Shown piece after piece: positions 6,273 to 53,790 of a stretch of 64,000 bases of DNA. This DNA comes from Candidatus Latescibacterota bacterium (GTDB lineage: Bacteria > Latescibacterota > UBA2968 > GCA-2709665): assembly GCA_965248435.1 (NCBI GenBank), contig OZ252100.1, positions 2,304,001 through 2,368,000 of the forward strand, read 5' to 3'. Numbering within the stretch: the first letter of the stretch is position 1; each line of letters opens with the position of its first letter. Position numbers and translations under genes: made by a program. Below the pieces are notes generated by a model. That model had not been told where the DNA came from. It did not search any database and was given only the letters and a program-made list of their open reading frames with translations.

Positions 6273-6289
6273 AGCAGAAGTCTTCGGGA

Positions 6290-6880: not shown

Positions 6881-6940
6881 TTCGCAAGATATCCTTTGCG
6901 TGCTTCTTGAAGTTCCTGCCTTACGACGATATACGTTCGC

Positions 6941-7900: not shown

Positions 7901-8099
7901 GAGAATCTCTACCGCCCGCTCCGCCAAGGCGTCTAGTCTGCGAACCGTAACCATAGTTGCCATTGAACAGCCCAAAATCAAGTACACCAACTCGAGTTTA
8001 CTGTTGGAAAACGGCTAGATATACGCAAAAAGGAGAGCCCAACCAAAATGTCGGGCTCTATCAGGTGCTCGGCAAGAGTATATCGCTTCGTGTCGATAC

Positions 8100-8477: not shown

Positions 8478-8481
8478 GATC

Positions 8482-9940: not shown

Positions 9941-9987
9941 TTGTTCCTCCTTTGAATTGAAAACGTGAACCTCCTACATCAAGACAT

Positions 9988-35765: not shown

Positions 35766-35828
35766 AGATCTATCCGCTAGAAGATGTAAGCCAATCTTCC
35801 GCCCGTTTGGTCAACCCGCTTCGGTGAT

Positions 35829-36068
35829 CTACTCACCCAAGCGTTTTTTCAGATAGTCCGTCGCGTCGTTGACCGTTTCAAGCTTCTCCGCATCCTCGTC
35901 GGGAATCTCTAAATCGAATTCCTCTTCGAACGCCATCACCAGCTCGACGGTATCCAGCGAATCTGCACCCAGATCGTCGATAAAATGGGCGTCAGCCGTC
36001 ACACTATCCGCATCGACACCGAGCTGATCGACAATCAGGTCAACCACTTTCTGTTGAACGTCGGCCAT
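35829..36068 (-). CDS. acpP: acyl carrier protein
   Basis: [20 protein letters not shown]. Confidence 0.98.
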
Positions 36069-36080
36069 TGCATCCCTCCG

Positions 36081-36827
36081 TTACATCACCATGCCGCCAT
36101 CCACCACCAGCACTTGCCCGGTGATGTAGACGGCATCATCTGAAACCAGAAAGGCGACAGCAGCTGCGACATCTTCCGGCCTTCCGAAGACGCCCAGCGG
36201 GATCTGTGCGAGGAGTTTGTCCTTTACATCTGTACTTAAATCTGACGTCATTTCAGTTGGGATGAAGCCGGGAGCGACCACGTTTGCCGTGATGCCGCGC
36301 CCCGCCAGTTCCCTAGCTACGGTCTTCGTGAGCCCGATCAGACCCGATTTGGAGGCCGTGTAGTTGATCTGGCCCGGATTTCCAACCAGCCCCGTGACGG
36401 ATGAAACCGTCACGATCCGGCCACTGCGGGCGCGCATCATCGCTCGCGCCGCGGCCTTGATGCAGAGAAAGGCCCCTTTCAGGTTAACGTCCAAAACGAC
36501 ATCCCAGTCCGCCTCCTTCATCCGCATCAACAGCGCATCACGCGTGACACCCGCGTTGCTGACGAGGATGTCAACTCTGCCCCAGCTGTCCAGCACAGTC
36601 TTGAAAAGCGTCTCCACTCCGGCGGGATCTGAAACGTCCGCCTGTAACCCGAGTGCGCGCCGCCCCAGACTTTCGATCTGCTCCGCGACCCCCTTTGCGG
36701 CCTCCACGCTCTTACTGGCGCAGACCGCCACATCAGCCCCTTCACCCGCCAGACGCAGCGCAACGGCCTCTCCGATCCCCCGCGACCCTCCCGTCACGAC
36801 AGCCGTCTTGCCTTCGAGGCGACTCAC
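36081..36827 (-). CDS. fabG: 3-oxoacyl-ACP reductase
   Basis: TGGSRGIG, NAGVTRD and YTASK motifs; GTG start overlaps the fabD stop. Confidence 0.96.
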   Translation of the reverse strand: MSRLEGKTAVVTGGSRGIGEAVALRLAGEGADVAVCASKSVEAAKGVAEQIESLGRRALGLQADVSDPAGVETLFKTVLDSWGRVDILVSNAGVTRDALLMRMKEADWDVVLDVNLKGAFLCIKAAARAMMRARSGRIVTVSSVTGLVGNPGQINYTASKSGLIGLTKTVARELAGRGITANVVAPGFIPTEMTSDLSTDVKDKLLAQIPLGVFGRPEDVAAAVAFLVSDDAVYITGQVLVVDGGMVM

Positions 36828-37744
36828 CCCGCAACCTCCTCGATCTCCTCGAGGGTTCCTGCGCCTGAAACCGGCAGCTTGCGATCGATCCTCCGCATCA
36901 GCCCTTGCAAAACGCTGCCTGGGCCGACCTCGATCGCGCGGTCGATCCCCTCTGAAATCAAGCGTTTGATACTGTCCGTCCACTTGACGGGTGAAACTAC
37001 CTGTTCGAGAAGAAGGCGCTTTAGCTGATCTGGATCCTGCGTCGGTTCGGCCGTCACATTGGGGATCACGGGCACACGCGCCGGAGAAAATGCGATCGTT
37101 TCCAGGACACCGGAAAGCGGCTCAACCGCCGGCTCCATCAGGGCCGAATGAAAAGCCCCGCCGACAGGGAGTTCGATGCACCGTTTTGCACCCCTCGCGG
37201 GGGCCTCTTCCAAGATCCGATCAATCCCCGCCCGATCACCCGAGAGGACCACCTGACCGGGACAGTTGTAGTTCGCCGGTGAGACCACGCCTGCATCGCA
37301 AACCGATTCGCATAGTTCGCCGATCTCCTTTTCAGAAAGTCCGAAAACTGCGGCCATCTTTCCGGGTCGGCCCTCTCCCGCCGCCTGCATCGCCTTTCCC
37401 CTGATGCCCACAACCCGGAGCCCGTCTTCGAGGGAGATCACACCGGCGGCCACCAGTGCCCCAATCTCTCCAACGCTGTGTCCCGACACGATGTCCGGAC
37501 GAATCCCCTTTCCTTCGAGCATGCCCAGGACGGCCAGGCTGTGTGTGAAAACTGCCGGCTGCGTGACCGACGTCCGTTTCAAAGCGGCTTCAGGACCGCT
37601 GAAGCATAACGACTTCAGTCCGATTCCCAGAATCTCATCGGCCAGATCGAACACGTCCCGGGCCGCTTCCGAAGCGGCGTAGAGGTCCTGCCCCATCCCC
37701 ACGTACTGCGAAGCCTGCCCGGGGAACAAAAAAGCCAAAGGCAT
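36824..37744 (-). CDS. fabD: malonyl-CoA:ACP transacylase
   Basis: FPGQASQ, GHSVGE and GAFHS motifs. Confidence 0.96.
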   Translation of the reverse strand: MPLAFLFPGQASQYVGMGQDLYAASEAARDVFDLADEILGIGLKSLCFSGPEAALKRTSVTQPAVFTHSLAVLGMLEGKGIRPDIVSGHSVGEIGALVAAGVISLEDGLRVVGIRGKAMQAAGEGRPGKMAAVFGLSEKEIGELCESVCDAGVVSPANYNCPGQVVLSGDRAGIDRILEEAPARGAKRCIELPVGGAFHSALMEPAVEPLSGVLETIAFSPARVPVIPNVTAEPTQDPDQLKRLLLEQVVSPVKWTDSIKRLISEGIDRAIEVGPGSVLQGLMRRIDRKLPVSGAGTLEEIEEVAG

Positions 37745-37787
37745 AGGCTGGGACTAATATCCAAAGGCCAAAGGTTCGGTCCCCACG

Positions 37788-38783
37788 CTAATAGGCCCAC
37801 CTCAGAAGGGCGCTTCCCCAGGTGAATCCCGCCCCCGCACTCGCCACAAGAACCTGATCCCCCCTGCTTACGCGCCCCCCCTCCACAGCATCGGAAAGCG
37901 CGATCGGAATCGTCCCGCACGTCGTATTCGCGAACCGATCGATGTCGATCAACACCTTGTCCTCCGGCAGGTTCAATTTCCGAATACTCGCATCTATGAT
38001 GCGTTTGTTGGCCTGATGCGGGAGGAACAACGCAATGTCTTCACCCGTAAGCCCGTTTCGTTCAAGGAGGTCTGCGGATACCGAGGCCATGCTATTCGTA
38101 GCAAACTTGAACACTTCGCGCCCATCCTGACGCACGTAATGCATCCTTTTGTCTACCGTTTCGTGGCTGGCCGGATGAAGGCTGCCTCCTCCTGGCTGAG
38201 AGAGGTACTTCCCACCCGAGCCGTCGACCTTGAAGATGAAGTCTTGTATACCCTCGCCGTCCTCTCCGGGTTCCAGGAGTACGGCACCTGCGCCATCCCC
38301 GAAAAGCACGCACGTGGACCTGTCTGTGTAGTCGACAATGCTGCTCATCTTATCGGCGCCAATCACGACCACTCGCTTGTGTGCACCCGATTCGACAAAC
38401 TGACAGCCCACGATGAGCGCGTAGAGAAACCCGCTGCAGGCGGCGGACAGGTCGAACCCCCATGCATTCTTCGCCCCGACGTTTTCCTGAACAAGGCACG
38501 CCGTTGCGGGGAACATCATGTCGGGCGTTACGGTAGCGACGATGATCAGGTCAACATCTTTTGCATCCAAACCCTTCTGCTCGAGCAGGTTTTCCAGGGC
38601 CCGCGTCGCAAGGAAGGAGGTTCCCAAACCGTCATCAAGGATCCGTCGCTCCCGAATACCGGTTCGAGACTGGATCCATTCGTCCGTCGTATCTACCATC
38701 TTTTCCAGATCGGCATTCGTCAATTTGCGGTCTGGGAGGTAGCGGGAAACGCCGGTTATTGAAGCGCGGAAACGCACACCCAT
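37788..38783 (-). CDS. fabH: beta-ketoacyl-ACP synthase III
   Basis: AACSGF, LFGDGAGA, PHQANKRI and GAGFTWG motifs. Confidence 0.96.
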   Translation of the reverse strand: MGVRFRASITGVSRYLPDRKLTNADLEKMVDTTDEWIQSRTGIRERRILDDGLGTSFLATRALENLLEQKGLDAKDVDLIIVATVTPDMMFPATACLVQENVGAKNAWGFDLSAACSGFLYALIVGCQFVESGAHKRVVVIGADKMSSIVDYTDRSTCVLFGDGAGAVLLEPGEDGEGIQDFIFKVDGSGGKYLSQPGGGSLHPASHETVDKRMHYVRQDGREVFKFATNSMASVSADLLERNGLTGEDIALFLPHQANKRIIDASIRKLNLPEDKVLIDIDRFANTTCGTIPIALSDAVEGGRVSRGDQVLVASAGAGFTWGSALLRWAY

Positions 38784-38802
38784 CTCGTCAGGACCTCATC
38801 GC

Positions 38803-38985
38803 TTAAACACCTTCGCCCTCGATGACTTCCTGACCTTTGTAATGACCGCAGCTGGGACAAACCCGGTGGGGCTGCCGCTGCTGACCACAGTTCGGACAAT
38901 CTGAGAACGTCGGCACCTGAAGCTTCCAGTGCGACCGTCGCTTGCCTGTCCTCGAATTGGAGCTTCTGCGCTTTGGATGTGCCAT
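38803..38985 (-). CDS. rpmF: 50S ribosomal protein L32
   Basis: MAHPKRR...CPNCG...HRVCPSCGHY. Confidence 0.96.
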   Translation of the reverse strand: MAHPKRRSSNSRTGKRRSHWKLQVPTFSDCPNCGQQRQPHRVCPSCGHYKGQEVIEGEGV

Positions 38986-38999
38986 TCAAAACCCCTTTT

Positions 39000-39509
39000 C
39001 TATTCGCTCGCCAAGCCCTGCAGCGCTTCCCAGCGCGGATCGGTCTTCTCCTCTTTGCAGTCGCAGCGACCCAGGTTAAAATTCTGACCGCACGACGGAC
39101 ATAGTCCCGCGCACGACTCCCGGCAGACGGGATTCATAGGAATTTCGAGAAGGATGTAATCCTTCACTTGCTCCCCAATATCGATCTTTCCCATCGCGTC
39201 ATCCAGCCAAATGATCGCCTCGTCTTCATCCCCTTCCATGGTTCTCGGGCGACCCTTCTGGAGGATGAACTTGAATCCACCTGTCATCCGCTTGGTAAAA
39301 GGCTCAAGGCACCTTGCGCACGACATCCCGAGCTCGAATTCCGTCTCCCCGGAGACCGTGAGGGACTCCCCCATCTTGAAAACGGTCATGTGAGTTTGAA
39401 TCGGCTTTGAGAAGTCGAACTCCTCATTCTCGATATGGAGCTCTTCCGGCGTCTCTGACCATTCGGACTCGTTGAGACCTTCCTCGAGTGCGTTCAAATC
39501 GACTTCCAT
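39000..39509 (-). CDS. yceD: YceD/DUF177 family protein
   Basis: CARCL and CRESCAGLCPSCG...DPRWEAL motifs; immediately upstream of rpmF; start MEVDLN. Confidence 0.9.
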   Translation of the reverse strand: MEVDLNALEEGLNESEWSETPEELHIENEEFDFSKPIQTHMTVFKMGESLTVSGETEFELGMSCARCLEPFTKRMTGGFKFILQKGRPRTMEGDEDEAIIWLDDAMGKIDIGEQVKDYILLEIPMNPVCRESCAGLCPSCGQNFNLGRCDCKEEKTDPRWEALQGLASE

Positions 39510-39519
39510 ACCACACTCC

Positions 39520-39957
39520 CTAAGAAGAAACAGCGCCTTCTCCGAAAAAGAACGTAATCTCTTGTGCCCCGTTTTCGGGTGAATCGGACGCGTGCACCGC
39601 ATTCTCCTGAACGTTGCTGCCAAATGCCTTTCGGATCGTTCCCTCCGCTGCCCGAGTCGGATCCGTTGCCCCGACGACCTCCCTGAGGGTGGATACGGCA
39701 TCCTCACGCTCGAGCACTGTTGGGACAGAAGGACCTGAAGTCATGAAATCGATCAAGTCGGGATAGAACGGGCGCTCCCGGTGCACGGCATAAAATTCCG
39801 CCGCCTGTGCACGCGTCAGGGTCATCATTTCCGTCCGAACGATCCTGAATCCCTTTTCTTCAACGAACTTGAGGATCTCCCCGACAATGTTTCGAGCCAC
39901 TGCATCCGGTTTGACGATCAACAGTGTTCTGGCTGCCACAATGATTCCAGTGGACAC
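39520..39957 (-). CDS. ndk: nucleoside diphosphate kinase
   Basis: TLLIVKPDA, FMTSGP, GTIR and NAVHASDS motifs. Confidence 0.96.
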   Translation of the reverse strand: MSTGIIVAARTLLIVKPDAVARNIVGEILKFVEEKGFRIVRTEMMTLTRAQAAEFYAVHRERPFYPDLIDFMTSGPSVPTVLEREDAVSTLREVVGATDPTRAAEGTIRKAFGSNVQENAVHASDSPENGAQEITFFFGEGAVSS

Positions 39958-40034
39958 GAGTTGCAGGTAGGGAAAGCGCCCTGTAAGAGGCGTCTCGAGA
40001 TTCGAAAATATGACCTATCACCCTGAAGATGAAG

Positions 40035-40063
40035 AAGATAGGATTTCACTATGAGTTTGTCAA
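40035..40063 (-). promoter_or_regulatory. putative sigma70 promoter for the ndk-fab run
   Basis: Minus-strand TTGACA-N17-TATCTT. Confidence 0.55.
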
Positions 40064-40090
40064 CACCAATTTTCGGTTCAAAGAATTAGT

Positions 40091-40119
40091 TTGACATGGA
40101 GATAAACCCCCCGTTTAAT
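40091..40119 (+). promoter_or_regulatory. putative sigma70 promoter for the FAR-acyltransferase-AGPS-SDR operon
   Basis: TTGACA-N17-TTTAAT, close to consensus. Confidence 0.65.
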
Positions 40120-40352
40120 TATATTTCGCCCGATGATCATTCAGGAGCCAAATGCCACGGGCAGGTAAGAGGATCCAGCTTCCGTCACCCTGCTCCACGA
40201 TGACGGACGACCCTAAGCCGCTGGCCGCCAGTGCGGGATGCCCTCAACATCTCCGCATCCGTCCCACCGACTTCGCCAAACCGCTCGAAGTCTCCAAAGA
40301 GAACCCTCTCGGCCAACCTGAACCCCTGAGGCAATAAAGATCTGATCCCACT

Positions 40353-41966
40353 ATGAGCTCGATCTCGCCTGCAATTAACGGAAAAGTCTTCTTCGTGACC
40401 GGGGCCACCGGTTTTGTGGCAAAGGGGCTGGTCGAAAAGCTCCTTCGCGACGTCCCCGGCGTGAGGCGACTCTACCTCCTGATTCGATCGGGAAAGCACG
40501 GTTCTGCGGAGCAGCGACTGGACCGTGAGGTGATCAACTCCAACGTATTTTCCGAGCTGAGGAAACGGCTGGGCCCGAAATTTGAAGAGACGGTTCGACC
40601 GAAACTGGTCGCCGTCGCGGGCGATCTATCCAAGGACCGGATGGGGCTGACCCCAGACGACTACTCCAAACTGCTGCAAGAAGTAGACATCGTCATCAAT
40701 TGCGCAGCGACGGTTGTCTTCGATGAGCGCCTGGACCACGCACTCGAGCTGAATACCCTTGGGCCCCGCCGCATCCTGGAATTCACGAAATCCTGCCGGG
40801 ATGCGATTCTCGTTCACGTATCCACGGCCTATGTCAATAGTCAGCAGACAGGTCACATCCCGGAGAGACTGCTCCCTCCCGGTCAGAAGATCCAAAGAAT
40901 CTTGGGGGACGGGCATTCTCCGGACTTCGATTTGGAGACAGAGATCGAATCGATCCGGCAATTCCGCGATGAGGTCATGTCAGACTCAGAACAACCCGAT
41001 CTCGAAGGCCAATTTCTTCGAACCCTCCAGCAACAGGACAGAGGCAAACGGGTGACCAAGTATCGACGAACGCATCAACTCGATGCCTTGCGCAAACGCT
41101 GGATAACACAAAGACTCGTGAAAGAAGGAATGTCGCGCGCTCGTAGGCTGGGATGGAATGATACCTATACCTTTACGAAGTCCATGGGCGAACAGATCAT
41201 CGCGAAATACCGCGGCAGTCTCCCGACCGCCATCGTGAGGCCTTCGATCATCGAGAGCAGCCTCTGCGACCCGGAGCCTGGGTGGTTGGATGGGTTGAAG
41301 GTTGCCGATCCCCTCTTCGTGCATTACGGTAAGGGCCGACTGGACCACTTTCCCGCGAATCCGGACATCGTGCTCGACGTCGTACCCGTCGACATCGTGA
41401 CAAACGCAATCATCGCTATCCTGCCTCAGGTTAGAAAGCAAAAGGACATGCAGGTCTATCAGGTCGCGACGAGTTCCGTCAATCCGTTGAAGCTTCGAGA
41501 CCTCGCAGACTGGGTCTACGAATACTTTAGGAAGAGCCCGCTGCAGGACAGGGACGGGAACCCAATTCAGGTGCACAAGTGGCGGTTTCCGAGCCACAAG
41601 GAATTTCGGCGGCAGGTTCGCCTGAAATACCAGGTCCCCCTCACCACGATGCTGTGGCTGACGAACCACGTGCCGATCTTCCCGTCCAGCATGAAACGAA
41701 AGGTTTCAATTTTTGAGGCCACGTTCCAACGTCTCCTTTCACTCATCGAAATCTATGGTCCCTACACCACGCTCGATTGCCGATTCGAAACGGAAAACAT
41801 CCGGCGCCTCTACCAAAAGCTGGACCCGGAAGATCGAAAGGTCTTCAACTTCGACGTCTCGAGCATCCGATGGCGAGAGTATGTGCAGGATATACACCTC
41901 CCGGGACTGAAGCGCCACATACTGAAGGACGGTTCGGAGCAGGAACATGTGGAGCATAGTGCATAA
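40353..41966 (+). CDS. alcohol-forming fatty acyl-CoA/ACP reductase (FAR; NAD-binding-4 plus sterile domain)
   Basis: TGATGFVAK, NCAATVVFDE, HVSTAYVN, YTFTK, IVRPSIIES..PEPGW, DVVPVD and a C-terminal FNFDVSSIRW...HLPGL. Confidence 0.93.
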   Translation: MSSISPAINGKVFFVTGATGFVAKGLVEKLLRDVPGVRRLYLLIRSGKHGSAEQRLDREVINSNVFSELRKRLGPKFEETVRPKLVAVAGDLSKDRMGLTPDDYSKLLQEVDIVINCAATVVFDERLDHALELNTLGPRRILEFTKSCRDAILVHVSTAYVNSQQTGHIPERLLPPGQKIQRILGDGHSPDFDLETEIESIRQFRDEVMSDSEQPDLEGQFLRTLQQQDRGKRVTKYRRTHQLDALRKRWITQRLVKEGMSRARRLGWNDTYTFTKSMGEQIIAKYRGSLPTAIVRPSIIESSLCDPEPGWLDGLKVADPLFVHYGKGRLDHFPANPDIVLDVVPVDIVTNAIIAILPQVRKQKDMQVYQVATSSVNPLKLRDLADWVYEYFRKSPLQDRDGNPIQVHKWRFPSHKEFRRQVRLKYQVPLTTMLWLTNHVPIFPSSMKRKVSIFEATFQRLLSLIEIYGPYTTLDCRFETENIRRLYQKLDPEDRKVFNFDVSSIRWREYVQDIHLPGLKRHILKDGSEQEHVEHSA

Positions 41967-43936
41967 TGGACGCACGCTATACCGGTTCAACGCCCATTCT
42001 CGAGCTTCACGTCAACCAGCTGCTCGAGAATCCAGAGCGCATGCTGGATCTCTATGACCGGTCCGCCCGGGAACTGATCGAGGTCGGACGTCTGGAAGGG
42101 TATTTCGAAGGTTGGGATCTTGGCCGCCTGAAATGGCCGTCCAGTCGGCGGGATACCGGGCCTGCAGACATCTCCGAACTTCAGAAGCGTGCAGAGCTTG
42201 TAAATAAAATCTTTCTCGGCGTACCGAAGCTCAGAGGTGAGCGGCTTTCGGATGCCTACTCGCCCTTCAATCGTCTAACCCCTGCTTATCACGAGGGGAA
42301 CCGTCTCTACCTCCAGCTCAAACACGACTTCCTTGCTCGAGGCGCCGGCAACGAGCAGAATTATCTCCAGCTCTACCAGGCGGTCTATGTGGAGGCCCTG
42401 GCTAAGGGAGGCGACCTGTTTTCTCCAGACGCGGGTGAGGCGGCGCTGTCCGAGGCCAGGATCTTTCGCGCACCCCTTTCCCACGCGCAGCCTGTAGCAG
42501 AGGACCTGCCAACCGCAGTGTTGGACGAAGATCCGAGGTGGGAAGAGACCTATTCCTGTAAACTGGATGGCCATCCGATCGAGGCCTCGTTGAGGGATCT
42601 GCTGAAGAAGGTGGCGGAAAGGGCCCTCGACTACGTCAACGCCGGCGGGTTGCTCGCCACCCACTTCAACACCTACAACAACCTCGGCTGGTTTGGCAGT
42701 TCAATCTGGAAAGTGATCGTGGATGTGGACCTTTCTCGTCATCAGATTCAGATCCAACGACCCGGTTCGAATCCCCACGACCTCGCCCATATCCGGAACG
42801 ACATTCATCTCGGTATCGCGATGCTCGTGGAGTTCCTGCAGGCTCATCGCGAAGACCCGGCCAGGCTGAAACCTGAAAAATACTGGTATGGCCAGGACTA
42901 CAGCTATCTCACTCGAGATATGCTGGATCTAGCCCAGCGGCTGATTCATGGGATGAACGAGCAAATCGATGGCAAGGAAAAACTCCAACTTCCACCTCTC
43001 CTGGCGGGCAGTCCCAGCGGGCGGTTTCTCGAATATCCTCACGTAGGCAGGCAGGCTCAGCCTTCACCCTGGAATCGAACCCTCAAGCTCTTGCGATGGG
43101 CGGGGGTCTCCTGGAAAGTGGGCAGACGTCGTGCGAGGCTGGCCAAATCGCAATTGAGCGAGGACCTGCGTTGGCCGCGTGCCTGGCAGGAATGGGTCGC
43201 CTGGTCCGATGCCACGCTTCGCATTTTCGGCATCCAGGTCAAAGTGAGTCTGGATCCGAGCTTTCATTCTGTCGCCAAAGACCTCGACCTGACCCGCGGA
43301 AAGCAGAAGGTGCTCTTTCTACCCACGCACCAATCTCTCCTCGACCACCCCATTATGTATCGGGTCCTGACCTCCCCGGAGCTGATGTCGGCGATGGGTT
43401 GGCGAGAGCCGGTGTCCTGCGCCTTCCTCGCGCGAACGGGGCTCTCCAAGGCTGGAGTGCGGATCGGCAGGTTCGATATGACCATGTTCGGCGTCTCGTC
43501 GGAGAAGTTTGACCGCATGTTCGAGGAACTGGACGGATACGTGACGCGCGAGCGTCTGGAGGGAACCGGTCCCACGGCCCTCAGGCTGGTGGAGGCCTTG
43601 AAGAAACGCCCTGGCGTCATCTATCCCATGGCGACCGTCGGCGCTTTCGATGTCCAGCTCTTTCCGCTACAGCACGCGATGTTCGCCCAACTGCCGCAGG
43701 ATGTAATCATCATTCCCATCGCCTTTCGGGGTGCACACGCGCTCTGGCCCAAGTGTCCTAAGGGAAACCTCCAGATCAATCCGGGCCTCGTCGAAGCCGT
43801 GGTTGCACCCCCGATGCTCGGAGAAACCACGCTGCTGCCCAAGCGCAGATCGCTGCGCATTCAGCTTGAGGCGGCGACACTCTTTCAGGCAGTGCACATT
43901 ACTTCCTTGTTGAATCCTGAACCATCTGCAGACTAG
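41966..43936 (+). CDS. glycerolipid acyltransferase-family protein with a large N-terminal domain of unknown function (candidate DHAP acyltransferase)
   Basis: C-terminal LFLPTHQSLLDH (HxxxxD block I), FLAR, IYPMAT and VIIIPIAF. Translationally coupled to FAR (TAATG). Confidence 0.7.
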   Translation: MDARYTGSTPILELHVNQLLENPERMLDLYDRSARELIEVGRLEGYFEGWDLGRLKWPSSRRDTGPADISELQKRAELVNKIFLGVPKLRGERLSDAYSPFNRLTPAYHEGNRLYLQLKHDFLARGAGNEQNYLQLYQAVYVEALAKGGDLFSPDAGEAALSEARIFRAPLSHAQPVAEDLPTAVLDEDPRWEETYSCKLDGHPIEASLRDLLKKVAERALDYVNAGGLLATHFNTYNNLGWFGSSIWKVIVDVDLSRHQIQIQRPGSNPHDLAHIRNDIHLGIAMLVEFLQAHREDPARLKPEKYWYGQDYSYLTRDMLDLAQRLIHGMNEQIDGKEKLQLPPLLAGSPSGRFLEYPHVGRQAQPSPWNRTLKLLRWAGVSWKVGRRRARLAKSQLSEDLRWPRAWQEWVAWSDATLRIFGIQVKVSLDPSFHSVAKDLDLTRGKQKVLFLPTHQSLLDHPIMYRVLTSPELMSAMGWREPVSCAFLARTGLSKAGVRIGRFDMTMFGVSSEKFDRMFEELDGYVTRERLEGTGPTALRLVEALKKRPGVIYPMATVGAFDVQLFPLQHAMFAQLPQDVIIIPIAFRGAHALWPKCPKGNLQINPGLVEAVVAPPMLGETTLLPKRRSLRIQLEAATLFQAVHITSLLNPEPSAD

Positions 43937-43948
43937 ATAGGATCTCCT

Positions 43949-45799
43949 GTGTCTACGGCTGATGTCATAACGCTTGCAGGCATCCTGGTCCTGGCCGCTG
44001 CCTTTTTCATCCTCGTAAAGAGGCGGGGTCGCGCTCAGCCTCTGGATGTGTCCTACGACCCGTCCGAAGCGCAGAGGTATCATCACAGATGGGGTTACGT
44101 GGACACCCGATTCGAGTTTGACGGACCCAGGAGCGTAAGGGTCACCGGAAGCAGGTATCCCCTCTCGGGTTTTAGCATGCCTTCCTTTGTCCCCTTCATA
44201 GAGGAAGTCCTGGACGTTCAGATTCGACCAGAAGATCTGAACGTGGAAAATAGACCTCACGAGATTCGGGCCCCGGCTCTGAACGAGGCCTTTATGGCCT
44301 CGATCGAGACCGAATTCAAGGAGGATCAGTACTCCATCGATCCCGGAGACAGGTTAGTCCACAGTCACGGACAACTGAGCGTAGACGAGGTCTATCAGAT
44401 CCTGTATGGAACATCCGTGAAGAGGGTGGTCGACCTGGTCCTCTATCCCGAAAAGGAAGAGGATATAGGCACCATCATCCAGTTGGCAGACGAACAGAGT
44501 GTATGTCTGATGCCTTACGGTGGCGGTACGAACGTAAGCGGCGCGCTGGCTTGCCCTTCTGCAGAAGATCGAATGATCGTATCGGTGGATATGAGAAGGA
44601 TGAGCCGAATCTTGTGGGTCGATGAAGAAAACTTTCAGGCCTGCGTCGAGGCGGGAATCACCGGCAAACAGCTTGAAAAGGAGTTGGACGCGAAGGGATA
44701 TACCTCGGGGCACGATCCGGACAGCATCGAGTTTTCAACGCTGGGTGGATGGATCTCAACGAACGCCAGTGGGATGAAGAAGAACAGATACGGCAACATC
44801 GAAGACATCGTGCTCGAAGCCACGCTGATCACACCCACCGGAAACGTTGAAACCCTGGCCGTGACGCCAAGAAGTTCTATCGGCTCACAGCCCAGGTCTC
44901 TTTTGTTCGGAAGCGAGGGGAATTTCGGAATCATCACCAAGGCCGTCATCAAGATCCACGCGAGACCCAGGGTGCGAAAATACGGCTCACTGGTGTTCCC
45001 GACATTCGAGAGAGGCGTCAGCTTCTTGAAGGAATTGCGCACACAGGGGATATTGCCCGCGAGCATTCGACTCGTCAGCAATAACGAATTCAGATTCGGA
45101 CAGGCGCTCAAACCCGAACCCACCTTTATGAAGGGGATCGTAAACGGACTTCAGCGGTTCTTTCTTCTTCGAATCCTGGGGTTTGATTCGAAAAAGATGG
45201 TTGCATGTACCATCTTGATGGAAGGATCAAGAGCAGAAGTGTCTCAACAGGAACGATCGATTTTCAGCATCGCCAAGAAGCATAAGGGTAAAAGCGGTGG
45301 TGCAGCCAACGGAAAGAGGGGCTACACGCTCACCTTTGGTATCGCCTACATCAGAGACTTCTGTAATGAGTGCCACGTCCTGGGTGAAACGTTTGAGACC
45401 TCCGTCCCGTGGAACAGAATCCACCACGTCTGCCAGGGCGTGGAAAGGGGATTGGTCGAAGAAGCCAAGAAAAGGAACGTTCCGGGGAAACCCTATCTGT
45501 CCTACCGTGTGACTCAGACCTATCACACCGGCGTATGCATCTACTTCACGATGGGTTTCTATGGAAAAGGGATGGAGAAGCCGACGGACGTTTTTCACGA
45601 GATAGAAGGTCGTTTGCGGCAGATCATTCTGGATAACGGGGGTTCTTTGTCTCACCACCACGGCGTCGGCAAGGTTCGACAGCCGTTTTTGTCTCAGGTC
45701 CACTCCGAAAACAGCATCAATGTCCTGCGCCAATCCAAAAAGGCGATGGATCCGAACAACACGTTCGGTATCAGAAACGGCGTGTTTGGTGACACCTGA
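43949..45799 (+). CDS. alkyl-dihydroxyacetonephosphate synthase (AGPS)-like FAD oxidoreductase
   Basis: RLVHSHGQ, PYGGGTNVS, GHDPDSIEFSTLGGW, ASGMKKNRYGNIED, GSEGNFGIIT, GYTLTFGIAYIRD, ETFETSVPW, RVTQTY..GVCIYF and GGSLSHHHGVGK; N-terminal TM helix. Confidence 0.9.
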   Translation: MSTADVITLAGILVLAAAFFILVKRRGRAQPLDVSYDPSEAQRYHHRWGYVDTRFEFDGPRSVRVTGSRYPLSGFSMPSFVPFIEEVLDVQIRPEDLNVENRPHEIRAPALNEAFMASIETEFKEDQYSIDPGDRLVHSHGQLSVDEVYQILYGTSVKRVVDLVLYPEKEEDIGTIIQLADEQSVCLMPYGGGTNVSGALACPSAEDRMIVSVDMRRMSRILWVDEENFQACVEAGITGKQLEKELDAKGYTSGHDPDSIEFSTLGGWISTNASGMKKNRYGNIEDIVLEATLITPTGNVETLAVTPRSSIGSQPRSLLFGSEGNFGIITKAVIKIHARPRVRKYGSLVFPTFERGVSFLKELRTQGILPASIRLVSNNEFRFGQALKPEPTFMKGIVNGLQRFFLLRILGFDSKKMVACTILMEGSRAEVSQQERSIFSIAKKHKGKSGGAANGKRGYTLTFGIAYIRDFCNECHVLGETFETSVPWNRIHHVCQGVERGLVEEAKKRNVPGKPYLSYRVTQTYHTGVCIYFTMGFYGKGMEKPTDVFHEIEGRLRQIILDNGGSLSHHHGVGKVRQPFLSQVHSENSINVLRQSKKAMDPNNTFGIRNGVFGDT

Positions 45800-45901
45800 T
45801 CACAGACGACGGACCGCTGACCCCGAAATGAATAGCCTTTTGATTCTAGCGGTCAGCGGTCTGATTTCCGAGATACGAGATGCGATCTGGACGCTTGACT
45901 C

Positions 45902-46717
45902 TTGACTGATTCCTTCCGCGAAAAGACCGTCATCATTACGGGCGCGTCTTCCGGCCTCGGCGCAACGCTGGCCGAGGAGTTTTCTAAACGTGGCGCTCGC
46001 CTCGTCCTGTTCGCGCGAACCGAACAGAAGCTCAAAGAAACCGCGGATCTTTGCCAGAATTCCGGATCCTCACCCCTGATTGTCACAGGAGATGTGACCG
46101 ACCCCCGGGACTGTGAGAAGCTGATAGAAAAGGCTGTCGCAAACTATGGCGATGTGGATTATTTTGTTGCGAATGCAGGCGTGAGTATGTGGGCCAAGTT
46201 CGAGGACGTGAAGGACATCTCGATATTCGGGAGGATTATGGAAACGAACTACCTGGGTACGGTCCACAGCGTTTACTACGCGCTTCCGTATCTGAAAAAA
46301 AGCAAAGGAATGATTGTCGCCATCTCCTCGATCCAGGGAAAGATCGGGGTCCCGCTTCACACCGGTTATGTCGCATCGAAGCACGCCTTGCAGGGTTTTC
46401 TGGCGTCACTTCGCGCGGAAATAAGCGGGAGCGGCGTCCACGTCCTCACTGTGCTGCCCCATTGGATGAGAGGTACTCATCTCAGAAAAAATGCGCTCGG
46501 CAAAGACGGATTCCCGATCGGTGAATCGAAGAGACACAGCAAAGAGTCGATCTCTCTTCAAGAATGCGCGGCCGCCATCATCAAGGCGATGAATAAGAGA
46601 AAGACGGAGCTGGTCATCCCACCCAAACTCAAACTCCTCCCCTGGTTGAATCTGATCAACCCAAAGATCGTGAACTTTCTCGTAAAGGGAGAGATGGAGC
46701 GCCAGGAGGAGTCCTGA
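45902..46717 (+). CDS. SDR oxidoreductase, DHRS7B-like (candidate acyl/alkyl-DHAP reductase)
   Basis: TGASSGLG, NAGVS, METNYLG, IVAISSIQGK and YVASKHA motifs. Confidence 0.85.
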   Translation: MTDSFREKTVIITGASSGLGATLAEEFSKRGARLVLFARTEQKLKETADLCQNSGSSPLIVTGDVTDPRDCEKLIEKAVANYGDVDYFVANAGVSMWAKFEDVKDISIFGRIMETNYLGTVHSVYYALPYLKKSKGMIVAISSIQGKIGVPLHTGYVASKHALQGFLASLRAEISGSGVHVLTVLPHWMRGTHLRKNALGKDGFPIGESKRHSKESISLQECAAAIIKAMNKRKTELVIPPKLKLLPWLNLINPKIVNFLVKGEMERQEES

Positions 46718-46907: not shown

Positions 46908-47606
46908 TCAATCAGTCATTAAGCGTTCCAGATCGATGTGCCGCTCCACTGACGCGTGCATCTCCCCGAGAAAACCCTTTTCCACATCGACCTCGGAGTC
47001 GAACGGGATCGTACCCAGAGAGGGAATGCCCGAAAGTCGAGTGACGACTTCCGGGCTGGTCTGCGCCGCAGTATCGAGGGGACCCGGCTGTGGGACGCAG
47101 TAGACGACGCCGCACACCTGCAGGTCTCGGGAGGCGGCTGCTTCGAGCGTGAGCAGCGTGTGATTGATCGTTCCGAGGGAGGCTCGGGCGATCACAATCA
47201 GCGGAAGGCCTATCCAGTCCGCCAGATCGGCAACGACGAAATCCTCCCGGATGGGGACGAGCAGCCCGCCTACCCCTTCCACGATCATCCACGAATGTTT
47301 CGAACAGAGTCTCGAAAAGGCCTCCAGCACGCCCTCGAGGTCCACATCTTTCTTTTCGAGACGGGCCGCCACGTTCGGAGAAAGCGGAGCCGCGAACGAC
47401 ACCGGATTGATGTCCTGCATCGCGTCTTGAACACCTGCAGCATGGCGGAGTACGCGGGCATCGTTCGATCCGCCCGTGGACACCGGCTTCATGACCCCGA
47501 CGTCCAGGCCTCGCTCACGGAAGACGCGAACGAGGCCTGCCGCCACGGCCGTCTTTCCCACGCCCGTATCCGTTCCTGCGATGAAGAATCCGCGTGCCAC
47601 ACTCAC
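46908..47606 (-). CDS. bioD: dethiobiotin synthase
   Basis: GTDTGVGKT, MKPV, VEGVGGL and LGTINHTLLT motifs. Confidence 0.95.
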   Translation of the reverse strand: MSVARGFFIAGTDTGVGKTAVAAGLVRVFRERGLDVGVMKPVSTGGSNDARVLRHAAGVQDAMQDINPVSFAAPLSPNVAARLEKKDVDLEGVLEAFSRLCSKHSWMIVEGVGGLLVPIREDFVVADLADWIGLPLIVIARASLGTINHTLLTLEAAASRDLQVCGVVYCVPQPGPLDTAAQTSPEVVTRLSGIPSLGTIPFDSEVDVEKGFLGEMHASVERHIDLERLMTD

Positions 47607-48979
47607 TCCGCCGATGAAGGTTCAGTAACAGCGCGAATCGACCCGCCTGTGATTTCCAGCATTCGATCCAGCTCCGCCATCTGGATGGCGAGGGGAGGCA
47701 TCAGCACGATCGTATTCCCGAGAGGACGGATCAGCAGCCCGCGATCCCGCGCCTCCTGGCACACTTTTGTGCCGATCCGCGCCTCCCACGGATAGGGCCG
47801 TCTGGATTCGCGGTTCTCGACCAGCTCTATTGCCGCGATCAGCCCACACTGCCGAACATCCCCTACTTGTCCCAAATCCTCGAAACGCAAGACGCCCTCA
47901 CGAAGCCGCTCGATCTTGGGCCGCAGGGCGTCCAGCGTGCCTTCCTGTTCAAAGAGTTCCAATGTCGCGAGTGCCGCCGCGCAGCCCAGTGGATTGCCCG
48001 TATAGGTGTGTCCGTGAAAAAACGTTTTTCGATCTTCGAACTCACCCAGAAAGGCCTCGTAGATTCGATCCGAGGCCATCGTCGCCGCGACTGGGAGGTA
48101 GCCCCCGGTGAGCCCCTTCCCGAGACAGAGCAAATCCGGTGAGATACCCTCCCGCTCACACGCGAACATCGTCCCCGTACGGCCGAACCCCGTCGCCACT
48201 TCGTCGGCGATCAAGAGCACGTCATATTCCCGGCAGAGGTCGGCGGCCCGTTTCAGATACCCTTCGGGGTGAACAAGCAGGCCGCCCGCACCCTGGACAA
48301 GTGGCTCCACAACGAACGCGGCGATTCGATCTGCATTCCGCTTCAGAAGGTCCTCCAGCGCAACCTGGCACCCTTCATTGCATTTCCGCGCTTCGGCGCA
48401 GAACGAACATCGGTAGGGGTGAGGCGCGGGCGTGGCGAGGCTCGAAAACAGGAGCGGACGATACACCTCGTGGAACAGCTGGATCCCACCCACGCTCACC
48501 GCCCCGAGCGTGTCGCCGTGGTAGCTCTCCGTAAAATGAAGAAACGTCTCCTTCTCCGGCCGTGGATCTGAACGCTGTCGCCAGTACTGAAGCGCCATCT
48601 TCAGCGCGGCCTCGACCGCAGTCGCGCCGTCATCGGAATAGAAAACGTGCGTCAGACCGGGAGGCGCAAGGTCAACGAGCTTCTCGGCGAGCCGGATTGC
48701 GGGCACGTTGGAGAGCCCCAGAAGCGTGCTGTGAGCCACCTTGTCAAGCTGATCCCGGATCGCGTCATCGATCGCGCGAACCCGGTGACCGTGCACGTTG
48801 CACCACATAGAAGAAAACCCATCCAGATAGCGCTTACCGTCGATATCCTCCAGATAAACGCCGTCCGCACGGGCGATGACCACCGGCACCTCCTGGGCGT
48901 AGTCCTGCATCTGCGTGAACGGATGCCAGACGAGCTGCCGGTCCAGATCCTTCAGGCGGGTCTTTTCTTCGGGGGTCAT
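47603..48979 (-). CDS. bioA: adenosylmethionine-8-amino-7-oxononanoate aminotransferase
   Basis: WHPFTQM, YHGDT, DEVATGFGRTG, GKGLTGGYLP and FFHGHTY motifs. Confidence 0.95.
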   Translation of the reverse strand: MTPEEKTRLKDLDRQLVWHPFTQMQDYAQEVPVVIARADGVYLEDIDGKRYLDGFSSMWCNVHGHRVRAIDDAIRDQLDKVAHSTLLGLSNVPAIRLAEKLVDLAPPGLTHVFYSDDGATAVEAALKMALQYWRQRSDPRPEKETFLHFTESYHGDTLGAVSVGGIQLFHEVYRPLLFSSLATPAPHPYRCSFCAEARKCNEGCQVALEDLLKRNADRIAAFVVEPLVQGAGGLLVHPEGYLKRAADLCREYDVLLIADEVATGFGRTGTMFACEREGISPDLLCLGKGLTGGYLPVAATMASDRIYEAFLGEFEDRKTFFHGHTYTGNPLGCAAALATLELFEQEGTLDALRPKIERLREGVLRFEDLGQVGDVRQCGLIAAIELVENRESRRPYPWEARIGTKVCQEARDRGLLIRPLGNTIVLMPPLAIQMAELDRMLEITGGSIRAVTEPSSAE

Positions 48980-51255: not shown

Positions 51256-53790
51256 ATGAGACTTCACTTCCTCGGGGGCGCCGACGAAATCGGTGCTTCG
51301 TGCACACTCGTCGAGATGGATGGCCATCGGGTCCTCGTAGATGCAGGGATCCGGATGGGCGCATCCCCCGGCGCGCACCTCCCCAACTTCTCCGCCCTGG
51401 ATGAGTTCGGGCCGCCGGATGAAGTCCTCGTCACCCACGCCCATACAGATCACACGGGCGCGCTTCCCGTCCTCGTCGCGGGACTCCCTCCTGACGTTCC
51501 CATCCGAATGACCGCACCGACTGCCGTGATCACCCGGGTCCTGCTGGGTGACGCCTTGAAGATCATGGAAAAGCGAGGCGAGCGCGACGGCGAACTCCCC
51601 CTCTATCCCCCTGAGGCAGTCGACGTCTGCCTGAGCAGAATCACGAGTGTACCCACGCTCGCGACGCTTCCGATCTGCGAAGGAAAGCTGAGTGCCACGT
51701 GGATCCCTGCGGGACACATCCTCGGCGCGGCCTCGATCTACATCGAAGGTCAAACGGAGGGGCTCTTGATGACCGGGGACGTCTCGGTGTCCGAGCAACA
51801 GACCATTCCGGGCATGATCGTACCTCAGTGCAGGCCGGACGTCGTCGTGATGGAGTCCACCTACGGAGACCGACAGCACGCAGACCGCAGCCAGCAGGAG
51901 ACATCTCTCGCCTTGCGCGTGGCCGAAGCGGTGGAATCCGGGGGTAAAGTCCTGATCCCGGCGTTCGCCGTGGGCCGCGCCCAGGAAGTGATTCTCATCC
52001 TATCGGGCGCGATGCGCGACGGCTTGGTCCAACCCTTTCCCCTTTACGTAGATGGGATGGTCCGCTCGGTGAACGCCGTTTACGCCGGATTTTCGGACGA
52101 ACTGGCCCCGAGACTGCGCCGGCGAATTCAAAAAGGAGACGATTCCTTCACTTCAGGGTTCGTCACCACGGTGGCTGACCACACGGATCGGGATCGCATC
52201 CTCAAGGGACCCCCCTGCTGCATCGTGGCGAGCTCCGGGATGCTCATCGGGGGCGCGTCCAGCTTCTATGCGGAGCGCCTCTCGGATCAACCCGAGAACC
52301 TGATCGCGATAACCGGCTACCAGGACGAGGAGTCTCCTGGCCGCGCGCTTTTGGCGCTCGCGAAGACGAAGGACAAGAATCGGACCCTCACCCTGAACGG
52401 CCGAAGAATTTCTGTCGAATGCAGCGTCGAAACCTATTCCCTCTCCGCACACGCCGACGGCGGACAGCTCGCCGCTCTGGCCAGACGCCTTTCTCCAAGG
52501 TCGGTCCATCTCGTCCACGGCAGCCCCGAAGCGCGAGCTGCCCTTGCCTCGATGATGGACCTCCACCTCCCCGAAGGCGTCCACCTTCCCGGAAACGGAA
52601 CCACAAGCGAAAGTGCGGGACAGACTGCGATAGGCACGCTACGCTACGGCCATCTCGTCTCCGTGAGAGGTCTCCTGGACGGAGGTGCAGCCGACAACAC
52701 GACGCTCGACAGTGCGCGCGGTTACCTGATGGAGGCGGGCGCAAAGGGCCCCTTTCGCGTCCAGGACCTTGCCGAAGTCTGTTACGGAACGGACCAGCTT
52801 CACCAAGTCGACCTCGAAGCCTTCAGAGAACTTCTGGAAAGTTCTCAGAGATCGTTCTCGCCGGACCGCCGGCGTCCCTACCCCTTCCACATTGCGCCCG
52901 ATCCAGGCGAAGGGCGGACCTCGGGTCCGATGGAGATGAATCAGGCCAGGGACAAAATCCAGGACGCCTTCCCCCCTGAGGCGGGTCTGTTCAAATGCAG
53001 CGCCTTCGTCGAGGACCATACCTACGAACTCGCCTTTCACTTTCCGGACGTCGTTTCTTCTCGCTACGGAGACCGCATCCAGGAACTCGAATCAGAAACC
53101 GGATGGAAGATCACGCTGCGCAAGACGCCTCACCAGGAAAGAGTCTTCCAGGAGGCCCGATCGGCGGTACCGGAAGGAGTCTCACCCACAAAGCCACCCG
53201 CGCTGCGCCTCGATGAGCGAAGCGTATCCGTCGAAGTGGTCGTACCCCGGGAACTCGAAGCGGACTGGGAGGGTCTCGCAGAGGATGCGAGTCGCTCCTT
53301 TGAGCAGACGACGGGCTATCGGCTGATGCTCCGCCGTCCAGGGGAGCCTGCATCAGGAACCGAAGTGGGCGCGCCTGAAGGAGCCCTCGAAATCAATCAC
53401 GCCTACGCCGAAATCCGAAGCGCCTTCCGTCATGAAAGCCACGCCCCTAACAGGATCGGCCTCAAGTCCGGGAGTGACGAATCTTACCTCGAAGTCTCGT
53501 TTATCTCACCCGCCGTTGGCGCCCGCTACCGCGAACGGCTTGACGCACTCTCATCGAGCATCGGCTGGCCGATCGCCGTCCGCGAATCGGCCCACCAGGA
53601 ACAGATCGCCGGCGAGGCCTTGAAGATCACGCCGGACGCGTGTCAGGCGCAGGGCGCACCCAGGCTCTTCGTGAGCGAGCAGAAGGTGGTCGTTCACGTG
53701 CTCCAGACCCCCGAGCCGGACGAACAGTCGGCCCTTCAACAGGCCTTCCTGGAGGCTACGGGCTTCCAAATCTCGTGGGAGACCCGATAA
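51256..53790 (+). CDS. beta-CASP metallo-beta-lactamase nuclease (CPSF73/Ysh1-like) with a duplicated C-terminal extension
   Basis: GGADEIGASC, THAHTDHTG, AGHILGA, MESTYG, PAFAVGRAQE, SSGML, GYQDEESPGR, SAHAD and VHG motifs. Confidence 0.9.
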   Translation: MRLHFLGGADEIGASCTLVEMDGHRVLVDAGIRMGASPGAHLPNFSALDEFGPPDEVLVTHAHTDHTGALPVLVAGLPPDVPIRMTAPTAVITRVLLGDALKIMEKRGERDGELPLYPPEAVDVCLSRITSVPTLATLPICEGKLSATWIPAGHILGAASIYIEGQTEGLLMTGDVSVSEQQTIPGMIVPQCRPDVVVMESTYGDRQHADRSQQETSLALRVAEAVESGGKVLIPAFAVGRAQEVILILSGAMRDGLVQPFPLYVDGMVRSVNAVYAGFSDELAPRLRRRIQKGDDSFTSGFVTTVADHTDRDRILKGPPCCIVASSGMLIGGASSFYAERLSDQPENLIAITGYQDEESPGRALLALAKTKDKNRTLTLNGRRISVECSVETYSLSAHADGGQLAALARRLSPRSVHLVHGSPEARAALASMMDLHLPEGVHLPGNGTTSESAGQTAIGTLRYGHLVSVRGLLDGGAADNTTLDSARGYLMEAGAKGPFRVQDLAEVCYGTDQLHQVDLEAFRELLESSQRSFSPDRRRPYPFHIAPDPGEGRTSGPMEMNQARDKIQDAFPPEAGLFKCSAFVEDHTYELAFHFPDVVSSRYGDRIQELESETGWKITLRKTPHQERVFQEARSAVPEGVSPTKPPALRLDERSVSVEVVVPRELEADWEGLAEDASRSFEQTTGYRLMLRRPGEPASGTEVGAPEGALEINHAYAEIRSAFRHESHAPNRIGLKSGSDESYLEVSFISPAVGARYRERLDALSSSIGWPIAVRESAHQEQIAGEALKITPDACQAQGAPRLFVSEQKVVVHVLQTPEPDEQSALQQAFLEATGFQISWETR

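Follow-up and report, generated by a model that had tools for sequence, protein, structure and literature searches.

Four adjacent genes at positions 40353-46717 of a 64-kb stretch of a Candidatus Latescibacterota genome (contig OZ252100.1; "the window" refers to this whole stretch) encode a fatty acyl reductase (FAR), an acyltransferase (AT), the flavoenzyme AGPS and a short-chain dehydrogenase/reductase (SDR). The cluster is very probably an ether-lipid module of a known kind, with a new gene arrangement and a new acyltransferase. We consider it probable, with moderate confidence, that the four genes constitute a working 1-O-alkyl glycerolipid module of marine Latescibacterota that uses AGPS ("aerobic, peroxisomal-type") chemistry. 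The case is carried by the identities of FAR and AGPS, the conservation of catalytic motifs, the linkage of the genes and their phyletic patterns. A first-pass annotation of this DNA had proposed such a pathway. Its interpretation as a whole is partly supported, and it missed the larger point, namely that the host belongs to a lineage without PlsX, PlsY and GpsA.

In the inferred route, whose product is proposed along with the substrate of SDR and both substrates of AT (acceptor and acyl donor), FAR would convert a long-chain acyl thioester to fatty alcohol, and AT would acylate the sn-1 hydroxyl of dihydroxyacetone phosphate (DHAP) by means of a His455/Asp460 dyad. On its flavin, AGPS would then replace the acyl group by the alcohol to form 1-O-alkyl-DHAP, which SDR would reduce with NADPH at the C2 keto group to 1-O-alkyl-sn-glycerol-3-phosphate. 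The sn-2 position would be acylated by the single small PlsC-like enzyme of the genome. No PEDS1/CarF-type desaturase (PF10520) was matched in the own genome or in any of the 168 species genomes of the phylum, in a search in which no control genome matched either; the expected products would thus be alkyl (plasmanyl) rather than vinyl-ether lipids.

Identity of the four gene products

The open reading frame (ORF) list of the window gives four co-directional and tightly packed ORFs on the plus strand. FAR (40353-41966, 537 aa) combines a Rossmann domain with a 'Sterile' domain at its C-terminus, AT (41966-43936, 656 aa) is a predicted HxxxxD acyltransferase of an isolated family, AGPS (43949-45799, 616 aa) is an FAD enzyme, and SDR (45902-46717, 271 aa) is a classical SDR of family NF004825. 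The stop codon of FAR overlaps the start codon of AT by 1 nt (TAATG), AT and AGPS are 12 nt apart, with an AGGA six or seven bases ahead of the GTG start of AGPS, and the gap between AGPS and SDR is 102 nt. These values confirm the close, co-directional spacing described in the first-pass annotation, and judged by this spacing, co-transcription of FAR, AT, AGPS and SDR is plausible.

The assignments of the first, third and fourth genes in that annotation (FAR, an AGPS-like flavoprotein and an SDR) all agree with the domain and structure matches. FAR matches PF07993 at 2.2e-71 and PF03015 ('Sterile') at 7.7e-17. Its closest solved structure is 7eoz (1e-94), deposited as 'Fatty acyl-CoA reductase', and the GATGFVAKG (GxxGxxG) and YTFTK (YxxxK) motifs are in place in the alignment. 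The architecture is that of the eukaryote-type fatty acyl reductases (FAR1/MS2), and judged from these matches the first gene encodes a eukaryote-type fatty acyl-CoA/ACP reductase.

AGPS contains PF01565 (1e-38, residues 162-303) and PF02913 (5.9e-34, residues 339-606). The alignment to guinea-pig AGPS (PDB code: 4bby) scores 527 bits (E 4.8e-157), runs over residues 46-610 of the query from position 94 of the chain, and extends across the N-terminal part that is specific to AGPS as well as the HHH loop; about 243 of 565 aligned positions are identical by hand count (~43%). Dictyostelium AGPS (2uuu) follows with 323 bits (3e-95). The segments PASIRL, CIYF and SHHHGVGK are identical between the window protein and the guinea-pig enzyme, and PASIRL, CIYF and SHHHG are what we take to be the sites of catalytic Arg419, Tyr578 and the His615-617 loop of the latter. 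The corresponding R374, Y532 and H569-571 are invariant in all 13 AGPS sequences of the phylum in the alignment, from which L026 was excluded due to a stop codon inside the tblastn span. The third gene might instead be an ordinary FAD-linked 2-hydroxyacid dehydrogenase of the GlcD or D-lactate dehydrogenase type, with no role in ether-bond formation: PF01565 and PF02913 are common to both, and TIGR00387 (glcD) gives 160 bits on AGPS, far under its cut-off of 568. This is highly improbable, as the best non-AGPS flavoenzyme (3pm9) scores only 82.5 bits, the alignment to AGPS takes in its specific N-terminal region as well as the HHH loop, and GlcD-like paralogues at 25-28% identity are separately present in the genome. 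The comparison of AGPS with the GlcD type, suggested as a check in the first-pass annotation, sides with AGPS on these scores. At the level of sequence the identity of the third gene as AGPS (EC 2.5.1.26) is unmistakable.

SDR matches PF00106 at 1.2e-47 and NF004825, an unnamed NCBIfam equivalog, with 297.9 bits against a cut-off of 215. The TGASSGLG, NAG and S...YVASK motifs of a classical SDR are present, and the nearest solved structures are a Candida hydroxyacyl-CoA dehydrogenase (1.3e-28) and mammalian 11beta-HSD1 (2e-27). An Arg after the second strand generally goes with NADPH in SDR enzymes, and its presence here (LFARTEQ) suggests NADPH as the cofactor. With the functional link given by gene context, SDR is a strong candidate for an alkyl/acyl-DHAP reductase. 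To our knowledge, no gene has been assigned to the reduction of alkyl-DHAP in the bacterial AGPS route; the cluster would give the unnamed and widespread family NF004825 a testable function as the bacterial alkyl/acyl-DHAP reductase.

AT itself has no Pfam match even at E≤10, no NCBIfam match, and no PDB sequence match with either the single sequence or a profile. It does contain an HX4D catalytic motif, H455-Q-S-L-L-D460. In an alignment of 30 AT sequences, H455 is invariant, position 460 is Asp in 25 and Glu in 5, and R490, T557 and P584 are each found in 30/30. These residues match glycerolipid acyltransferase motifs I-IV in a divergent form. Two orthologues with 41-43% identity (P0120 and P0121) pass PF01553 at residues 421-563, and the orthologue in genome G132 is also above the PF01553 cut-off. 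The AlphaFold (AF2) model of AT (pLDDT 83.6, pTM 0.87) has a helical N-terminal domain of ~420 aa and a C-terminal alpha/beta domain (residues ~430-650). The N-terminal domain is conserved, and H294, E296, Y306-W307-Y308, T316-R317-D318 and D321 are invariant in it. Foldseek returned confident matches for the C-terminal part only, the top one being Thermotoga PlsC 5kym (E 2.3e-4, prob 1.0, TMt 0.59) and the next squash GPAT 1k30 (E 7.7e-3). In the ESM Atlas, the matches were to lysophospholipid/AGPAT clusters with scores of no more than 0.86, which serve as a lead only.

A profile search of 1.84 billion representatives gave 64 matches to AT, all of them fragments except for 7 full-length proteins of 607-665 aa; none is fused, longer than 665 aa or a member of another acyltransferase family. 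The named homologues carry the labels Latescibacteria, Handelsmanbacteria and Gemmatimonadetes. A search for longer forms of AT found no fusion, which by itself is weak evidence. The hhalign comparisons of the AT profile to a FAR-acyltransferase fusion protein (FARAT) and to the PlsC-like protein of the own genome were not significant. Membership of AT in the GNPAT/GPAT1/PlsB family was ruled out based on the missing GPAT_C domain (PF19277), the lack of Pfam and PDB matches, and a profile search that returned its own family only; the relation to GNPAT was judged by these Pfam, PDB and profile searches, with no direct GNPAT sequence comparison. AT was also rejected as a PlsC orthologue, being PlsC-like only in its C-terminal fold. 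The dyad, motifs II-IV and the fold are those of the PlsC/LPLAT superfamily (HX4D fold), and the model places AT in this superfamily by fold, in an isolated and previously unrecognised family. The first-pass annotation had assigned the second gene to the GNPAT step as an HxxxxD acyltransferase. The motif (H455/D460) and the fold agree with this, while homology by sequence to GNPAT, PlsB or PlsC was not found. We propose AT to be a DHAP (or G3P, glycerol-3-phosphate) sn-1 acyltransferase, for which DHAP as acceptor and the acyl donor are assigned from context.

Conservation and two-part structure of the cluster

Twenty AGPS-centered loci of relatives from two families of the same order were compared for synteny. 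FAR, AT, AGPS and SDR are found in the same order and on the same strand in 19 of them, and in the exception, G022, FAR-AT is located ~110 kb away from AGPS. The linkage of the four genes is far above chance. The nearest AGPS loci of relatives are from Latescibacterota metagenome-assembled genomes (MAGs), with identity from 79% downwards. PF07596, used to probe for a planctomycete origin, had no match, in a search in which no control matched either. Among the 168 species genomes of the phylum, AT is matched in 132, FAR in 131, AGPS in 125 and the SDR orthologue in 119, and the genomes with any of these genes fall nearly all into families f1-f4 of one class. The pattern of SDR tracks that of AGPS (119 vs 125 of 168), the SDR orthologue being missing exactly where AGPS is missing (f3, G048 and genus g28).

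The wider survey of AGPS loci is based on the best 80 of 590 relatives and is skewed to close relatives. In this set the SDR orthologue is directly downstream of AGPS in 62/75 loci with enough sequence, from several phyla. Upstream of AGPS, both FAR and the 650-aa AT are present in 21/59 loci, FAR without this AT in 5/59, and neither gene in 33/59. The four-gene order also occurs in loci labelled Gemmatimonadota or Trueperaceae (L074, L116, L119). In five loci of other phyla (L125, L131, L133, L136 and L138), a single FARAT fusion protein is encoded directly upstream of AGPS; Pfam confirms the three-domain fusion in 4/5 (L125, L131, L133, L136). In loci labelled Aquisalimonas, Phycisphaeraceae, Wenzhouxiangella and Hydrogenedentota, this protein is 772-897 aa long and has NAD_binding_4, Sterile and PF01553 domains, similar to MXAN_1675 of Myxococcus xanthus. 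The AGPS proteins of the five loci are 52-54% identical to that of the window. FARAT is followed by AGPS and then by the same SDR family in L125, L131, L136 and L138, and in L133 the stretch after AGPS yielded no SDR orthologue. The AGPS-adjacent SDRs of three other lineages, L125 and L131 included, pass NF004825. The order of functions in these FARAT-AGPS-SDR clusters is the same as in the window, but their FAR carries a canonical PF01553 domain within the same protein. That FAR and AT of the window hold the position of the fusion is the best argument that AT supplies acyl-DHAP and that SDR reduces the AGPS product. By this positional analogy, AT would feed AGPS with acyl-DHAP.

Several observations weigh against the proposed route. 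In family f4, AT is found alone in 8/8 loci and AGPS-SDR elsewhere in 7/8, leaving AT unlinked from AGPS-SDR, and FAR of this family is mostly a domain (39-46% identical to the window FAR) within a 1400-aa protein of the ElbD type. FAR and AT occur without a canonical AGPS or SDR orthologue in G048, G077, G079 and most of genus g28. Since AT and FAR persist without AGPS or SDR, AT is not dependent on AGPS, and the cluster therefore consists of two modules, FAR-AT and AGPS-SDR. In AT, motif III is without the usual Glu, and position 556 is Ala in the window protein and Gly in 25/30 relatives; no sequence relation of AT to GNPAT, PlsB or the FARAT acyltransferase domain is detectable. The accessible text of three published studies adds that the AGPS route makes just a small contribution in M. 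xanthus (PMC9131029), that no ether lipids were seen in Pontiella with ElbD homologues (PMC11868695), and that short-chain plasmalogens were not detected in a sponge study (bioRxiv 10.64898/2026.06.23.733905).

The two modules could be independent and merely lie side by side, with FAR-AT being ElbD-like, AT a housekeeping G3P acyltransferase, and AGPS-SDR fed by another enzyme. The separation seen in f4, the FAR-AT pairs of G048 and G077 without AGPS or SDR, the gene cluster of G077 described below, which recalls the elb genes, and the ElbD-type proteins holding the FAR domains of f4 would all be accounted for. There is, however, no other candidate for the DHAP acyltransferase, as G010, G026 and G048 have a single PF01553 protein, which is PlsC-like and ~240 aa long. 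The absence of GpsA leaves the supply of G3P for such a GPAT unexplained, and in other phyla the acyltransferase is fused to FAR directly upstream of AGPS, with SDR following in 4/5. We regard independent modules as unlikely, and prefer the coupled route in which AT feeds AGPS. The first-pass annotation had described a complete pathway in one operon with one step for each gene, in pathway order, and had named lack of linkage elsewhere as a refutation. The linkage is conserved, the gene order matches the pathway order, and FAR and AGPS fit their steps; the unity of the operon is what gave way, as it splits into two modules.

ElbD of myxobacteria (FAR-ACS-ACP-AGPAT, ~1400 aa; ACS, acyl-CoA synthetase; ACP, acyl carrier protein) has a FAR domain homologous to that of the window, and ElbD-type proteins are found in the sister family f4. 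The window FAR differs from ElbD in being a stand-alone protein of 537 aa with FAR domains only, and ElbD chemistry, unlike the window cluster, uses no AGPS. In G132 (family f4), a 1424-aa ElbD-type protein with NAD_binding_4, Sterile, AMP-binding and acyltransferase domains (L142:4671-8945) takes the place of the stand-alone FAR, its gene being flanked by lgt and a gene for a diacylglycerol-kinase-like protein. In G077 (family f3), genes for an acyl-CoA synthetase, FAR, a 650-aa AT, a HAD hydrolase and a Zn-alcohol dehydrogenase follow each other on the minus strand (L039:7005-14517); AGPS, the SDR orthologue, PlsY and GpsA are all missing from this genome. This could be an elb-like version of the cluster that works without AGPS and relies on another reductase. 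A second, divergent AGPS, 47-48% identical to that of the window, was noted in G078 and G151 (L056:7935-10243, L057:9069-11347), followed by a different SDR with 29-30% identity; the reductase partner has apparently been swapped.

Canonical sn-1 acylation enzymes in the class

In the textbook scheme, bacterial sn-1 acylation is carried out by PlsB or PlsX/PlsY on G3P made by GpsA. This canonical route serves the same purpose as the one proposed here, the provision of 1-acyl- or 1-alkyl-glycerol-3-phosphate for PlsC. Divergent to FAR, the window contains a core fatty-acid synthesis cluster, yceD-rpmF-fabH-fabD-fabG-acpP-fabF (34515-39707, minus strand, identified by Pfam matches), which adjoins FAR in the same manner in 11/19 four-gene loci of the relatives. 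The plsX gene is missing from its usual slot between rpmF (38803-38985, minus strand) and fabH (37788-38783, minus strand), which are 19 nt apart (38783-38803). The gap pointed to the class-wide absence of PlsX, PlsY and GpsA.

PlsY (PF02660) is matched in 0/131 genomes of the class (f1-f4) versus 29/36 other genomes of the phylum, with 8 controls matched, and the GpsA C-domain (PF07479) in 0/131 versus 29/36, with 10 controls matched. PlsX (PF02504) is matched in 1/131, on a side contig, versus 33/36, with 8 controls matched. Sister families within the phylum thus keep PlsX, PlsY and GpsA. The own genome, which is not among the 131, has no PlsY or GpsA match, and its only PlsX match, below the cut-off, is a phosphotransacetylase. 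The GPAT_C domain of PlsB-type enzymes was found in 0/5 genomes, including 0/4 of the class members sampled, with the E. coli control matched. The same pattern is seen in G048, which is from another family and has AT and FAR without PlsX, PlsY and GpsA. It should be mentioned that the class genomes are mostly MAGs and that relatives are not independent, so that the pattern represents one to three evolutionary events; the count of 0/131 is not attributable to genome incompleteness.

AT is present in 129/131 genomes of this class. G010 and G026 (single contig) and G048 (two contigs) each have one canonical PF01553 protein, the PlsC-like one mentioned above. The own genome (5.67 Mb, 2 contigs, 97.5% complete) has three, a PlsC-like protein of 210 aa, a sporadic one of 483 aa and an ACS-ACP-acyltransferase of 928 aa. 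The 483-aa protein was rejected as the missing GPAT, because just 19/168 genomes have it and the same-genus relative does not. AT is probably the only sn-1 acyltransferase of the lineage, and the core lipid biochemistry of the host lineage looks non-canonical. As a separate observation, the 928-aa protein (C1:2776424-2779210, ~410 kb downstream of the window; AMP-binding, PP-binding and PF01553 domains) resembles the C-terminal two-thirds of ElbD without the FAR domain, and has an 874-aa counterpart in the same-genus relative G001 and none in G010 and G026.

The distribution of AT also bears on a role in neutral lipids, in which AT would esterify the fatty alcohol of FAR to wax or alkyl esters, and AGPS-SDR would have some other or lesser part. 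Wax esters were a refuting outcome in the first-pass annotation. Many organisms rely on FAR enzymes for wax synthesis, and DHAP is only the proposed acceptor of AT. The occurrence of AT in nearly every genome of a class that is without the known sn-1 acyltransferases fits housekeeping rather than storage, its predicted fold is of the glycerol-phosphate acyltransferase type, and the active-site residues of AGPS are conserved. A neutral-lipid cluster is accordingly very unlikely.

The loss of GpsA, the biosynthetic source of G3P, points to DHAP as the acceptor of AT. In the class, AT, with or without SDR, appears to take the place of GpsA, PlsX, PlsY and PlsB. It is quite possible, if short of probable, that the class has dropped GpsA together with PlsX/PlsY or PlsB and builds all of its glycerolipids via acyl-DHAP, with AT acting first and SDR or another reductase later. 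Under this acyl-DHAP-only scheme, SDR would reduce both alkyl- and acyl-DHAP, AGPS would channel some or most of the flux to 1-O-alkyl lipids, and the cluster, positioned beside the fab genes, would start all glycerolipid synthesis. In yeast, dual G3P/DHAP acyltransferases and the acyl-DHAP reductase Ayr1 likewise acylate DHAP and then reduce the lipid. The yeast route is made of different protein families and runs alongside G3P acylation; in the Latescibacterota class, unlike in yeast, the acyl-DHAP route may be the only one. On the other side, the search for a source of G3P in the class covered GpsA only, and the genomes with AT and without the SDR orthologue are also without GpsA and PlsY. 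Those genomes therefore need another reductase or another source of G3P, such as glycerol kinase.

Outside the class, G074 and the Trueperaceae-labelled G168 have the four-gene cluster alongside PlsY, as expected after transfer. Two side observations concern such genomes: G170 (L132, labelled Acidobacteriota) has AGPS-SDR and no match for PlsY, GpsA or the 650-aa AT, and in G168 (L116) the complete set of four genes is accompanied by two copies of PlsY, with GpsA unmatched. The non-canonical start of lipid synthesis may extend beyond Latescibacterota.

If true, the class-wide loss of PlsB, PlsX/PlsY and GpsA, with one orphan acyltransferase instead, would be a clear exception to the textbook scheme. 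If AT acts on DHAP, the "peroxisomal" route would be a core pathway. Should the acyl-DHAP reading hold, ether lipids would be a core membrane trait of abundant marine bacteria, and FAR/AT/AGPS/SDR would represent, outside Myxococcota, a bacterial equivalent of the entire eukaryotic pathway.

Comparison with known systems and genomic setting

The animal peroxisomal pathway (FAR1, GNPAT, AGPS, DHRS7B/PexRAP) consists of the same four steps, in the same order, as proposed for the window. FAR has the same two-domain architecture, guinea-pig AGPS is ~43% identical to that of the window with the Arg, Tyr and HHH residues conserved, and DHRS7B is a classical SDR like the window reductase. In contrast, animal GNPAT is unrelated to AT in sequence and architecture, the catalytic domain of AT being C-terminal after the 420-aa helical domain and without GPAT_C. 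The window genes are also chromosomal, in an apparent operon beside fab genes, and PEDS1 was not found (in the search without a positive control). The animal reductase acts on both alkyl- and acyl-DHAP, according to the accessible part of PMC9131029.

The closest described bacterial system is the MXAN_1676-1675-1674 operon of M. xanthus, which, in the accessible text of PMC9131029 and PMC13012113, encodes AGPS, the FARAT fusion and an NAD-dependent epimerase/dehydratase. The same text of PMC9131029 reports that deletion of the AGPS gene lowers ether lipids and that MXAN_1676 is ~42% identical to human AGPS. The M. xanthus operon thus likewise combines AGPS, FAR, an acyltransferase and a nucleotide-dependent reductase, with a similar identity of AGPS to the animal enzyme. 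It differs from the window in several respects. In the window, FAR and AT are separate ORFs overlapping by 1 nt, and no fused form of AT was found. The M. xanthus acyltransferase is a short domain described as GNPAT-like in the part of PMC9131029 seen, whereas AT is a 656-aa protein of an orphan family. The M. xanthus reductase is of the extended epimerase/dehydratase type, whereas that of the window is a classical SDR of NF004825. The gene order in the window is FAR-AT-AGPS-SDR, and the window host is without PlsX, PlsY and GpsA.

For the phylum itself, the accessible text of PMC11868695 reports that, of 92 Black Sea Latescibacterota MAGs, 67 have homologues of AGPS and 50 have homologues of ElbD. 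The sponge study (bioRxiv 10.64898/2026.06.23.733905) reports agps and 'standalone elbD' matches in sponge Latescibacterota; in its accessible portion the phylum is called previously unlinked to ether lipids, and GNPAT and DHAP are never mentioned. Our literature search, which covered articles without their supplements, found nothing on a FAR-AT-AGPS-SDR operon, a bacterial AGPS-linked SDR, the AT family, or the loss of PlsX/PlsY/GpsA in the phylum. Latescibacteria are included in a table of PMC6431249 on the occurrence of PlsY and PlsC. The view of the first-pass annotation that bacteria use other machinery needs to be corrected in view of the AGPS-FAR/AT-reductase operon known from M. xanthus (accessible text of PMC9131029). 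For the origin of the eukaryotic genes, the accessible text of PMC13012113 argues for Myxococcota as the source of FAR/GNPAT (FARAT) and PEDS1 and leaves AGPS unresolved. The occurrence of FAR-AT-AGPS-SDR or FARAT-AGPS-SDR clusters in several phyla widens the range of possible donors of eukaryotic ether-lipid genes.

Metagenome DNA runs that share part of the region are marine or seawater samples from several studies, with shares of 0.2-0.5, and no RNA run was listed for it. Latescibacterota, which are frequent in seawater, sediments and sponges, would be candidate sources of the non-isoprenoid monoalkyl glycerol ethers that serve as lipid markers in the environment if their AGPS route were constitutive.

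The divergent intergenic region between yceD and FAR (39708-40352, 645 nt) presumably carries promoters for both directions. A promoter scan of this spacer found 5 sigma-70-like sites compared with 3.3 ± 1.8 in shuffles; the weak sites at 40057-40086 and 40097-40125 are therefore no excess over shuffles, and the single promoter for all four genes in the first-pass annotation did not find support. The spacer between AGPS and SDR contains a hairpin (45810-45863, plus strand) with a 13-bp stem and a minimum free energy of -33.3 kcal/mol (z -2.66), and equally good folds were obtained in 2/200 shuffles. The tail that follows it is short and U-poor, and the length of the AGPS-SDR spacer differs widely among relatives. 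Instead of a terminator, the hairpin may be an element for processing or stability.

Several other features of the window were noted. An 844-aa protein with metallo-beta-lactamase, beta-CASP and RMMBL domains (51256-53790; RNase J or CPSF-like) has ~400 extra C-terminal residues without a Pfam match. The bioD and bioA genes (46908-48979, minus strand) converge on the 3' end of SDR and are kept in family f1, with no functional link evident. The G+C content at positions 6001-10000 is 0.48-0.52, compared with 0.55-0.61 elsewhere in the window, and this segment may be a foreign island.

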